Positions 28,853 to 39,040 of a stretch of 64,000 bases of DNA are shown piece after piece. Position numbers and translations under genes: made by a program. This DNA comes from an uncultured Gammaproteobacteria bacterium (lineage in GTDB: Bacteria > Pseudomonadota > Gammaproteobacteria > Legionellales > Legionellaceae), in assembly GCA_963784615.1 (NCBI GenBank), contig CAWASG010000001.1, positions 1,824,046 through 1,888,045 of the forward strand, written 5' to 3'. Numbering within the stretch: position 1 is the first letter of the stretch; the number at the start of each line of letters is the position of its first letter. A model generated the notes under the pieces. That model saw only the letters and a list, made by a program, of their open reading frames with translations, did not search any database and was not told where the DNA came from.

Positions 28853-30375
28853 TGAGAAAGAAAAAACCGCTGTCAACCACATCTGAATGGACGTTTGAAT
28901 TACTCAACGACTACGATCGTGAGATAGGCCGTTTGGCCAAAGCATTTAAGCTGAGCACTTATCCCAATCAAATCGAAGTGATCACCGCTGAGCAAATGAT
29001 GGATTGTTATGCCTCGGTTGGTATGCCGATTAATTACCATCACTGGTCTTATGGAAAGCATTTTATTGGTGTTGAGAAAAGCTATCAACGCGGCGAAATG
29101 GGGTTGGCTTATGAATTGGTGATTAATTCCAATCCCTGTATTGCGTATTTGATGGAAGAAAATACGATGGCGATGCAGGCCTTAGTAATCGCCCATGCCT
29201 GTTATGGCCATAATTCGTTTTTTAAAAATAATTATTTATTTAAAATGTGGACGTCCGCGGATGCAATTGTGGATTATTTAGTGTTTGCCCGGCGCTATAT
29301 CAGTGAATGTGAAGAGCGATACGGCATCGATGAAGTTGAGTCTACGCTCGATGCTTGTCATGCCTTGATGAATTATGGTGTTGATCGTTACAAGCACCCG
29401 AGTAGCTTGTCATTGCAAGAAGAAAAAATTCGCCAGCAAAATCGCGAGATGTATTTGCAAACGCAGGTGAATGAATTATGGCGAACGATCCCGCAGGCCA
29501 AAGGGGCGTTAAAAGACATCGAGAAAAAGCGCTTTCCTGAAGAGCCGCAAGAAAATCTGCTCTATTTTATCGAAAAAAATGCGCCACTTCTGCAACCTTG
29601 GCAACGGGAGATTGTGCGTATTGTCAGAAAAATGGCGCAGTATTTTTATCCTCAAGGACAAACCAAAGTGATGAATGAAGGGTGGGCAACCTTCTGGCAT
29701 TATACGTTGATGAATGCGCTTTATGATGAGCGCTTGGTGACGGATGAGTTTATGCTGGAAATTTTGCAAAATCACACCAACGTCATTCGCCAACCGGCCT
29801 ATAATAGCCCTCATTTCAGTGGCATCAACCCCTATACGCTGGGTTTTCATATGATGCAAGACATCCGGCGTATTTGTGAAAATCCTACCGATGAAGACAA
29901 ACAATGGTTCCCGCATTTGGCCAATACAGACTGGCTGACAAGCCTTGATGACGCCATGCGTAATTACAAAGATGAAAGCTTTATCGCCCAGTTTTTATCA
30001 CCGCATTTGATGCGCGAGTTAAAGCTGTTTCATATGGTTGATGATACTCAGAATCCTGAATTATGGATTCAATCGATTCACAACGACCAAGGCTACCAAC
30101 ACATCCGGGAAGCCTTATCCAGTCAATACAATTTAGGTAATCAAGAGCCCAATATTCAAGTCTATTCGGTGGACATAGAAGGCGATCGCTCACTCACCCT
30201 TCATCATACACAACATAATCGCGTGCCACTGGGCGCATCGACGGCCGAGGTATTAAAGCATTTGTACACGTTATGGAAGTTTCCCGTCGTGCTTAAAACC
30301 GTTGATCTGCAACAAAAGGTTACCGCAGAATATCACTGCCCGCCGAAAGCAGAGGCAAGTGGCACGAAACCGTAG
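28852..30375 (+). CDS. ycgB: SpoVR family protein
   Basis: 507 aa, third member of the PrkA-YeaH-SpoVR module. Its TAG stop lies inside the GTAGG head of a mini-REP element. Confidence 0.9.
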   Translation: MRKKKPLSTTSEWTFELLNDYDREIGRLAKAFKLSTYPNQIEVITAEQMMDCYASVGMPINYHHWSYGKHFIGVEKSYQRGEMGLAYELVINSNPCIAYLMEENTMAMQALVIAHACYGHNSFFKNNYLFKMWTSADAIVDYLVFARRYISECEERYGIDEVESTLDACHALMNYGVDRYKHPSSLSLQEEKIRQQNREMYLQTQVNELWRTIPQAKGALKDIEKKRFPEEPQENLLYFIEKNAPLLQPWQREIVRIVRKMAQYFYPQGQTKVMNEGWATFWHYTLMNALYDERLVTDEFMLEILQNHTNVIRQPAYNSPHFSGINPYTLGFHMMQDIRRICENPTDEDKQWFPHLANTDWLTSLDDAMRNYKDESFIAQFLSPHLMRELKLFHMVDDTQNPELWIQSIHNDQGYQHIREALSSQYNLGNQEPNIQVYSVDIEGDRSLTLHHTQHNRVPLGASTAEVLKHLYTLWKFPVVLKTVDLQQKVTAEYHCPPKAEASGTKP

Positions 30376-30410
30376 GTTGGGTTGAGGCTAGGAACCTCAG
30401 CCCAACCCAC
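30372..30410. repeat. degenerate mini-REP overlapping the spoVR stop codon
   Basis: GTAGGTTGGGTTGAGGCTAGGAACCTCAGCCCAACCCAC. The spoVR TAG stop is the TAG of the element head. Confidence 0.7.
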
Positions 30411-30454
30411 GGCGTTCATTGACAAAAGTCGCACATCGTTCTAATATGTTAAAT

Positions 30455-30751
30455 ATGACAATAAAAAAAATACATTATGAATTTTCAGCTGATAAAAATC
30501 GCACTTTAATACAGGAGCGAGGTGTTAGCTTTGAAGATGTTATATCGGCATTAGATAACGAGAAATTGCTTGATATTCTCAAGCACCATAATGATTTGAA
30601 GTATCCAAATCAAATGATCTATGTCATTAATCTTAATGGATACATATATTTAGTGCCATTTGTAAGAAAAAATGAGCACGTCATTTTTCTCAAAACTATT
30701 TTTCCAAGCCGAAAACTGACCAAAATATATTTAAGTGATAGGGGTGTGTGA
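30455..30751 (+). CDS. brnT: BrnT-like toxin (DUF497, RelE/ParE-fold ribonuclease family)
   Basis: Track ORF 30419..30751. Start taken at MTIKKIHYEFSADKNRTL. The ERGVSFEDV...VPFVRKNE..IFLKTIFPSRKLTKIY pattern matches BrnT, and the 4-nt ATGA overlap with the next gene is typical of TA pairs. Confidence 0.7.
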   Translation: MTIKKIHYEFSADKNRTLIQERGVSFEDVISALDNEKLLDILKHHNDLKYPNQMIYVINLNGYIYLVPFVRKNEHVIFLKTIFPSRKLTKIYLSDRGV

Positions 30752-38585: not shown

Positions 38586-38759
38586 AAATCAATCCCTGTA
38601 AGTCGCTTTGCTAGTCGATTATACGTATAATTTTGAATTATGGAACTCCTTATCAGTCTTAAAAACGAGTATTCTTAACCAAAAATTTCCAAAATAAAGA
38701 GCATAATTGACTATTTTTCGTTGATCGGGCATGTCGTCTCCCGCTCTTAGTAACGCTTC

Positions 38760-38918
38760 CATTTAGTTTTGACAGGTTGGGTAGATGGCATTAAACCGGA
38801 ATCCGAGCCACGACCGTTAGGGAGTGGAGCAGTTCAGCCGGCTCCGAAACTACCCCACTCCCTAACGGTCGTGGCTCGGATTCCGGCTCAAATATCAACA
38901 ATTTGAATATTGTAACCT
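38760..38918. mobile_element. MITE family B, copy 1 (right end truncated)
   Basis: The left terminal inverted repeat (CCATTTAGTTTTGACAGGT) is the same as family A. The different core has 32-bp perfect arms (CCGGAATCCGAGCCACGACCGTTAGGGAGTGG / complement). The right terminal repeat is missing and abuts a REP remnant. Confidence 0.8.
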
Positions 38919-39040
38919 ATCATTAGATGAATAATATACTAGGTTCCTTTGCTCGCTCAATCCAACATACGATCATCCATTCCCCCTTGGCATTGACCTC
39001 ATTTCACGTTAGGATTATATTTTTGTAAGCGTTTTGATGT

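Follow-up and report, generated by a model that had tools for sequence, protein, structure and literature searches.

The subject of this study is a group of accessory genes located between spoVR and moxR in a 64-kb window (that is, the whole stretch of DNA that was analyzed, numbered from its first nucleotide), which comes from the oriC-proximal part of a Legionellaceae chromosome. The origin region lies within the window, where the atp operon, mnmE and yidC are followed by dnaA (14547-15938), dnaN and recF, and the cumulative GC skew has its minimum near 11-14 kb. SpoVR identity is 88% to the metagenome-assembled genome UBA6148 and 80-82% to several Legionella species. The interval in question (30372-38920), which is about 16-24 kb from dnaA/oriC, was previously described from the letters of the sequence alone as a repeat-framed accessory island that had been assembled by insertion or recombination at palindromic elements (referred to here as the original prediction). 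Here, we have analyzed the genes and non-coding repeats of this interval and compared its gene order and individual units with loci from other genomes, which are designated by L numbers.

Gene content of the spoVR-moxR interval

Genes were called from an open reading frame (ORF) listing together with Pfam, NCBIfam and PADLOC scans, and the list of genes that the original prediction had given between spoVR and moxR was borne out (Table 1). The block was also correctly said to lack an integrase or transposase: Pfam scans of its seven called proteins detected no integrase, recombinase or transposase domain, and none was seen among the other scanned genes of the window either.

Table 1. Genes and non-coding features of the interval and its anchors, in window coordinates (REP, repetitive extragenic palindrome; MITE, miniature inverted-repeat transposable element; TIR, terminal inverted repeat)
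Feature	Position	Strand	Description
spoVR	28852-30375	+	Left anchor, last gene of the pepN / prkA-DUF444-spoVR block; Pfam SpoVR, E 2.6e-176
Single REP hairpin	30372-30411		Window-wide GTAG family (GTAGGTTGGGTTGAGG...CCTCAGCCCAACCCAC)
Predicted sigma-70-like promoter	30419-30447	+	TTGACA-17-TAATAT, for the toxin-antitoxin pair; 10/12, top promoter-scan match of the region
BrnT-like (DUF497) toxin, ~98 aa	30455-30751 (ORF called from 30419)	+	Pfam BrnT_toxin, weak
CopG/BrnA-type antitoxin	30748-31047	+	Pfam CopG_antitoxin
SPFH/Band-7 protein	31221-32780	-	Pfam Band_7, residues 302-489
GNAT acetyltransferase	33026-34015	+	Pfam
MITE-A	34015-34233		Roughly 29-bp TIRs (..GTAC..CCATTTAGTTTTGACCGGTT) around a nested palindrome; 98% copy at 50886-51100
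Foldback C copy 1	34293-34430	+	Left arm and beginning of right arm, truncated at the 3' end (stop codon) of the ATPase gene
ATPase_2/DUF234 ATPase	34440-35900 (probable start 35876, 478 aa)	-	Pfam; PADLOC PDC-S27
Twin operator-like palindromes	35890-35982		TTTGCGGCAAA / TTTGTCGCAAA / TTTGCGACAAA / TTTGCCGCAAA; upstream of the ATPase, part of the cassette
Foldback C copy 2	35992-36195		Complete ~200-nt hairpin, GTAGCC...GGCTAC ends; abuts the legT stop codon
LegT-family thaumatin-domain protein, 797 aa	36192-38585	-	Pfam, NCBIfam LegT
MITE-B	38746-38942		Left TIR as in MITE-A, other palindromic core, decayed right TIR; 83% copy at 62216-62403
Decayed REP head	38956-38970	-	GTATGTTGGATTGAG, 2 mismatches; legT/moxR spacer
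moxR	39041-40054	+	Right anchor; Pfam AAA_3, E 9e-65

The putative toxin matched the Pfam BrnT_toxin model with an E value of 3.5e-5 and 24-24.5 bits, which is below the 34.5-bit cutoff, and its partner matched CopG_antitoxin at 38.2 bits, above the 28-bit cutoff, with a weak match to BrnA_antitoxin as well. The two genes are arranged as a toxin-first operon with a CopG/BrnA-type antitoxin, overlap by 4 nt at the toxin stop and share a promoter; the TTG listed as the start of the brnT ORF would be the -35 box of this predicted promoter. The GC content of third codon positions is 0.28 for brnT, 0.29 for brnA and 0.32 for the SPFH gene, and 0.47, 0.42 and 0.45 for the GNAT, ATPase and legT genes, respectively (window mean 0.42, standard deviation 0.074), and the brnT ORF as called from 30419 has an overall GC content of 0.31. 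Composition, which the original prediction had named as a check on its island, is heterogeneous and not block-like, the AT shift being confined to brnTA and the SPFH gene. The brnTA pair is probably the most recent arrival in the block. Toward the end of the window, a stand-alone PIN-domain gene (62729-63133) adjoins the second copy of MITE-B and a PIN-PhoH fusion gene is located at 59416-60819; together with brnTA, these PIN genes make up several toxin-like nuclease genes within 64 kb.

In the SPFH protein, one full SPFH domain is preceded by some four N-terminal copies of the first beta-strand motif of this domain, and the repeat-containing family of this protein is rare, with only 22 homolog clusters, each in a different context (e.g., L091-L093). 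The closest relatives of the GNAT protein (62% identity) are GrpB-GNAT fusions, of which a GrpB vestige of about 45 aa is left here. A relationship of this protein to VipF was considered and dropped, the sole match in the Protein Data Bank (PDB) being Eis (E 0.006).

The thaumatin-domain protein (Pfam PF00314, E 8.4e-13) aligned with positions 2-775 of the 776 in the NCBIfam LegT model (NF045527), with a score of 879.6 bits that is below the 1200-bit equivalog cutoff. It is 45-46% identical to LegT of L. pneumophila, has a similar length and is predicted to be a LegT-family effector homolog. LegT (lpg1328) is listed among the Dot/Icm substrates of L. pneumophila (PMC2824747), and represents a widespread known Legionella effector family rather than a novelty of the block. 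The window's candidate host-interaction genes were previously thought to be concentrated in the block. Possible further ones are located outside it, so that the block is not their only site: a patatin-like phospholipase (20644-21762), whose position beside pepN is conserved in many Legionellaceae, a DUF2807 adhesin-like protein (49896-50822) and a 461-aa protein without a Pfam match (46842-48227).

Dispersed repeats and gene order in relatives

All five repeat elements that had been reported in the interval (a REP, MITE-A, two copies of foldback C and MITE-B) are present. The window contains 25 occurrences of the REP head GTAGGTTGGGTTGAG, nearly all of them in spacers, compared to 0.11 expected. 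In the 64 kb, these GTAG REPs occupy about 14 intergenic loci as singlets or inverted doublets, following convergent or tandem genes, and the TAG stop of spoVR itself falls within the GTAG head of the leftmost REP of the interval. Their short imperfect palindrome, conserved GTAG head and high intergenic copy number are the features of REPs and of REP doublets (REPINs). It was reported that GTAG-tagged REPs form a superfamily which is mostly intergenic (PMC3733652). Neither a Y1-transposase domain nor a REP-associated tyrosine transposase (RAYT) was detected among the scanned proteins of the 64-kb window.

MITE-A and MITE-B have a common TIR, ..GTAC..CCATTTAGTTTTGAC(C/A)GGTT (also written CTAGTACCGTTTCCATTTAGTTTTGACCGGTT), and different cores. 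They show the terminal inverted repeats, small size (170-220 bp), absence of an ORF and multiple copies that characterize MITEs, and the TIR is also found beside a transposase ORF: it is present in nine metagenome contigs and, in L100, borders a decayed, frameshifted ORF with a Tn5/IS4-type Tnp_DNA_bind domain (PF14706, E 3.8e-26). Judged by this match, the MITEs appear to derive from an IS4/Tn5-type insertion sequence, in favor of which an IS630 origin (CTAG target) was dropped. Their flanks are mostly of the form C-TA/.../TA-G, no 9-bp target duplication was seen in them, and the exact ends of the elements are ambiguous. QMITEs of the related Coxiella provide a precedent for MITEs in Legionellales (PMC5896051). 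The palindromic core nested in MITE-A (34079-34160, and 50946-51027 in the other copy) also occurs alone, without MITE ends, at 44525-44603. Since this solitary core lies inside the 5' part of a BatD-like ORF (44365-46332), the true start of the BatD-like gene is probably further downstream.

The two copies of foldback C contain 109-nt direct repeats (34293-34401 and 35993-36101) that are 89% identical, and the complete copy has a predicted folding energy of -92.6 kcal/mol (z -4.66, 0/200 shuffles). An Rfam scan of the window at gathering thresholds found tRNA-Leu alone (48489-48574, the sole tRNA), and a permissive scan of 30300-39100 yielded nothing but a chance microRNA match on the operator palindromes of the ATPase; with no Rfam match, the idea that foldback C is a known RNA family was rejected. 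The foldback C core had no match in a metagenome scan. All four repeat families are absent from the fetched loci of relatives that were compared for them, other than L088, whose sequence matches that of the window exactly and which presumably comes from the same organism, and the REP, MITE and foldback families appear to be undescribed for this lineage.

Repeats had been claimed at every gene boundary of the block. Two of the six spacers, brnA/SPFH (31048-31220) and SPFH/GNAT (32781-33025), contain none, and the fraction of spacers with a dispersed repeat is 4/6 inside the block versus 15/30 outside (Fisher p=0.66), which is no excess over the background of the window. As the spacers of the block hold repeats that are found all over the window, the repeats were probably not its builders, the ATPase gene and its surroundings being one possible exception. 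REPs have also settled in conserved operons whose gene content has remained unchanged. A REPIN (27439-27533) is present inside a conserved operon, in the prkA/DUF444 spacer, which is 25-50 nt long and empty in L002, L085 and L087 and contains another palindrome in L001, and a REP (40065-40184) is present inside the conserved moxR/DUF58 pair, the same spacer in L081 being 16 nt long without a REP.

Several other repeats were observed in the window. A 180-nt foldback in the atpG/atpA spacer (1921-2100; arms of 77 nt, 90% complementary) has a relative with 78-85% identity in the prkA/DUF444 spacer of the closest genome, L001 (8577-8707), and an inverted repeat upstream of tatC (55545-55663; 54-nt arms, 85% complementarity) shows no relationship to the other families. 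Two tandem arrays in coding sequence have a period of 15 nt: one at 43895-44269, located between the VWA genes of the Bat operon and the BatD-like gene, has AAACAAAATCAGGACAAA-type units, and the other, at 57442-57603, has GCTGCTGCC/ACCACC units. The dnaA-dnaN-recF genes are preceded by an AT-rich 1.45-kb spacer (13099-14546), with a 78-nt direct repeat pair at 13652-13729 and 14170-14247.

Upstream of the interval, the order pepN, prkA, DUF444, spoVR is kept in the Legionellaceae loci that were fetched (L001-L018). Sequence downstream of spoVR was available for 18 Legionellaceae loci (L001-L018 minus two contigs ending at spoVR, plus L085 and L087), and the gene order there differs from that of the window in 18/18. 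The variability expected of the interval was found, in that brnTA and the SPFH, GNAT and ATPase genes are located within 10 kb downstream of spoVR in 0/18 of these loci; homologs of the block genes occupy unrelated contexts elsewhere. An empty site in which spoVR adjoins moxR, as proposed for relatives, was sought and not found, the content after spoVR differing in all 18 loci; because synteny is broken right after spoVR in every one of them, there is no single empty site. moxR, the first gene of a Bat-type operon (moxR-DUF58-DUF4381-VWA-VWA-BatD) that is syntenic in L015 and L081, lies 6.4 or 9.4 kb downstream of spoVR in L015 and L017, and the gap is filled by other genes, including rpoH, ftsX, ftsY, rsmD, an MFS transporter gene and a cold-shock gene. 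In L017, spoVR is followed by the housekeeping genes rpoH-ftsX-ftsY-rsmD, and homologous genes come after it in L012 and L014. By these gene orders, the 3' side of spoVR is a family-wide synteny break and not a defined insertion. A megablast search of the whole block against plasmids gave no match.

At the other border, the legT homolog of L081 (65% identical) is divergent to moxR across 163 bp, and the spacer does not contain MITE-B. Repeats had been supposed to mark the right border as well, and the same gene order without repeats had been named in advance as an observation that would speak against this. L081 shows exactly that: it keeps the legT-moxR order with neither MITE-B nor the moxR/DUF58 REP. 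As this junction is free of both elements, the right border is not a breakpoint, and legT would belong with moxR and the Bat operon rather than with the rest of the block.

The ATPase cassette and the origin of the interval

The ATPase qualifies as a match to the PADLOC hidden Markov model PDC-S27 (E 7.8e-87, residues 12-448), and more than 7,400 homologs with 52-56% identity are found across phyla. Its invariant features are GRRRxGKS (Walker A) and, on the C-terminal side, a D...ExK motif that may be nuclease-like; a profile search of the PDB with the ATPase alignment gave no match. PDC-S27 is described as a defence candidate whose activity is not validated (PMC12988326). The contexts of ATPase homologs include L089, a plasmid locus of Desulfosarcina (L111) and phage/plasmid matches. 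Upstream of the start codon are twin palindromic operator-like sites ~54 nt apart, which are of the TTTGCGACAAA type or the GGAGAC...GTCTCC type depending on lineage. The operator region of the window is homologous to that of L089 (9890-9995), and the same architecture with other sequences is present in L104-L110 (about 2413-2524 in L105-L110). The conservation of these twin palindromes suggests that the ATPase gene may be autoregulated.

Considering the genes, repeats and gene orders together, we think it likely that the interval 30372-38920 is not one island but a mosaic plasticity zone whose units were gained independently and which REP/MITE elements colonised later. Gene order would have broken family-wide just 3' of prkA-DUF444-spoVR, and the interval would have gained its units piecemeal. 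These units may have had separate histories: brnTA with a strong predicted promoter of its own, the SPFH-repeat membrane protein (rare, Legionellaceae-type), a GNAT gene that is now GrpB-less, the self-contained ATPase cassette and the LegT gene. Three kinds of putatively selfish non-coding element, namely GTAG REP/REPINs, IS4/Tn5 MITEs and the 200-nt foldback, fill about half of the window spacers and most likely settled in tolerant spacers once the genes were in place. Considering their position after convergent and tandem genes, the repeats now probably act as terminators or insulators between such genes. This reading builds on the gene identities, the anatomy of the repeats, the missing enrichment and synteny, and the absence of repeats from the legT-moxR junction of L081; we infer the order of events, with piecemeal gain and loss as the mechanism. 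The repeat-framed island of the original prediction holds with regard to its genes, repeats, variability and missing integrase, whereas repeats are not present at every boundary and are not enriched, and a single empty site, a breakpoint on the right and a block-like composition were not found.

Several points weigh against the plasticity zone. Foldback C has two copies only in the window, and these bracket exactly the ~1.56-kb ATPase cassette. The same geometry is found with a different foldback (9781-9877 and 11461-11546) in L089, whose ATPase is 81% identical and whose neighbours are unrelated. A repeat-linked insertion mechanism for the ATPase unit is plausible, and it is not explained by piecemeal gain with later colonisation. 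Moreover, the repeat statistics cover 64 kb of the source genome only, the L081 contig ends 94 nt after legT and does not cover the left side of this gene, and the closest genome compared has only ~80% nucleotide identity, so that no insertion or recombination event is dated or mapped to the base.

In the window, the upstream foldback ends about 117 nt before the ATG of the ATPase gene and the downstream copy directly follows the stop, with a spacing of 1700 nt; in L089, the first foldback ends 124 nt before the ATG and the second begins 24 nt after the stop, with a spacing of 1670-1680 nt. The two L089 foldbacks are 98-100% identical except for a 10-nt loop indel and are the sole repeat in this 11.6-kb locus. 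Homology between the cassettes of the window and L089 stops within 10-20 nt of the foldbacks, whose bodies differ and which have the CCGTAGCC...GGCTACGG ends alone in common. Weaker flanking direct repeats (113 nt, 77% identity) are present in L110, and the gene block of L105-L110 is 91-96% identical, compared to flanks that match at <=~80% or not at all in L106-L108. All these observations would agree with a scenario in which the ATPase unit alone is repeat-linked, either moving while bracketed by two GTAGCC-type foldbacks or inserting at one and duplicating it, and which is compatible with the plasticity zone for the rest of the block. We consider this scenario possible but unlikely, since flanking repeats were looked for and not found in L104, L105, L107, L109 and L111, the outer flanks of the foldback pairs in the window and L089 show no target-site duplication, the sample is small (with the 36 spacers of the window alone, adjacency by chance has a probability of about 0.056), and the window showed neither a transposase nor a RAYT. 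The borders of the L105-L110 block are not sharp either, and a discrete 1.7-kb mobile unit is not claimed for these loci. With regard to a composite transposon, the two bracketing copies are present, and an outer target-site duplication and the same unit in several sites were not found. In a more specific form, the PDC-S27 cassette would travel with, or be targeted to, a GTAG-type foldback or REPIN and end up bracketed by two direct host-specific hairpins. This form is rather doubtful; if true, it would imply gene mobility via REP-like palindromes instead of an element-encoded integrase. A foldback bracket is not mentioned in the passages on PDC-S27 that were consulted (PMC12988326), and no literature search was aimed at such a bracket.

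An assembly of the whole block by insertion or homologous recombination at palindromic repeats marking every cassette boundary could account for the repeats in four of the six spacers, the missing integrase and the 109-nt direct repeats that flank the ATPase gene. It is very unlikely considering the two repeat-free spacers and background density of repeats, the same families inside conserved operons, the legT/moxR junction of L081 without MITE-B, the decayed right TIR of MITE-B and a composition that varies between units. Assembly at palindromic elements is not supported for the whole block, but the anatomy of the ATPase cassette could fit it. We give hardly any credence to the idea of a former classical integrative island that has lost its integrase and att sites by decay. 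Such an island would agree with the variable position in the family, the toxin-antitoxin cargo and the partly AT-shifted composition, but none of the classical hallmarks (an integrase, insertion at a tRNA or att site with direct repeats, block-wide deviant composition and an empty site in relatives) was found: the seven called proteins contain no integrase or transposase domain or fragment, the sole tRNA is at 48489, the only repeat spanning both edges is a chance-level 31-mer with 77% identity, composition is heterogeneous, and legT goes with moxR in L081. It has also been considered that the left two-thirds of the block (brnTA, SPFH, GNAT and the PDC-S27 ATPase) might be a small anti-phage defence islet. 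The strong PADLOC match of the ATPase and the nearby toxin-antitoxin pair, both accessory, point in this direction, but the SPFH, GNAT and toxin-antitoxin proteins have no meaningful PADLOC match and homologs of these genes do not co-occur, which makes a defence islet quite improbable. An integron array or a cluster of attC sites lacking integrase, to which the palindromes between the genes had drawn attention, was rejected. Judged by the attC criterion of RYYYAAC ... GTTRRRY ends, co-oriented cassettes and a nearby IntI, foldback C has by eye GCTCAAC on the left with no matching GTTRRRY on the right, orientations are mixed, and IntI or another integrase is lacking.

Comparison with known systems

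If the interval is a plasticity zone, the whole region would be quite ordinary, with REP/MITE elements filling tolerant spacers in a genome of the Legionella family, and effector, toxin-antitoxin and defence-candidate genes gathering at a rearrangement-prone junction near the origin. In a genome so rich in repeats, finding them at gene borders is to be expected and is no evidence of a mechanism, which calls for caution when a region is read from its sequence only. The foldback-bracketed ATPase cassette may give a small hint of the way in which this orphan ATPase gene, which is very widespread, passes from genome to genome.

MITE-bracketed composite units include integron mobilization units and MITE-flanked integrons. 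The ATPase unit likewise is a cassette with a short non-autonomous element on either side, both copies in direct orientation; however, no target-site duplication or transposase was identified, the downstream copy in the window is truncated, and several homolog loci lack the bracket. The ATPase gene also resembles PDC-S27, a single-gene ATPase_2/DUF234 family, in its HMM match, its occurrence as a single gene and its very wide, patchy distribution. The MITEs of the window share ~29-bp TIRs, a size of 170-220 bp, a palindromic core and multiple copies with IS4/Tn5-type MITEs, but lack a clear 9-bp target duplication, end in CT(A/G)GTAC and have nested GTAG-type hairpins as cores. As in the GTAG REP/REPINs linked to RAYT/TnpA-REP (Di Nocera et al. 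2013, PMC3733652), a GTAG head, an imperfect palindrome and singlets or doublets are found here, whereas a cognate RAYT was not seen in the window and the text of that study does not mention Legionella. The LegT-like protein corresponds to LegT of L. pneumophila in its full-length model alignment and domain, and differs in genomic position in addition to its lower model score: legT follows a SPOR/OMP gene in L. pneumophila and L001, whereas it faces moxR in the window and L081. With regard to the interval as a whole, conserved anchors (spoVR and moxR), variable accessory content and the lack of an integrase are shared with plasticity zones at synteny breakpoints. It differs from them in having no single insertion site or att and in that housekeeping genes fill the same interval in some relatives, which points to a rearrangement-prone junction rather than a defined island.

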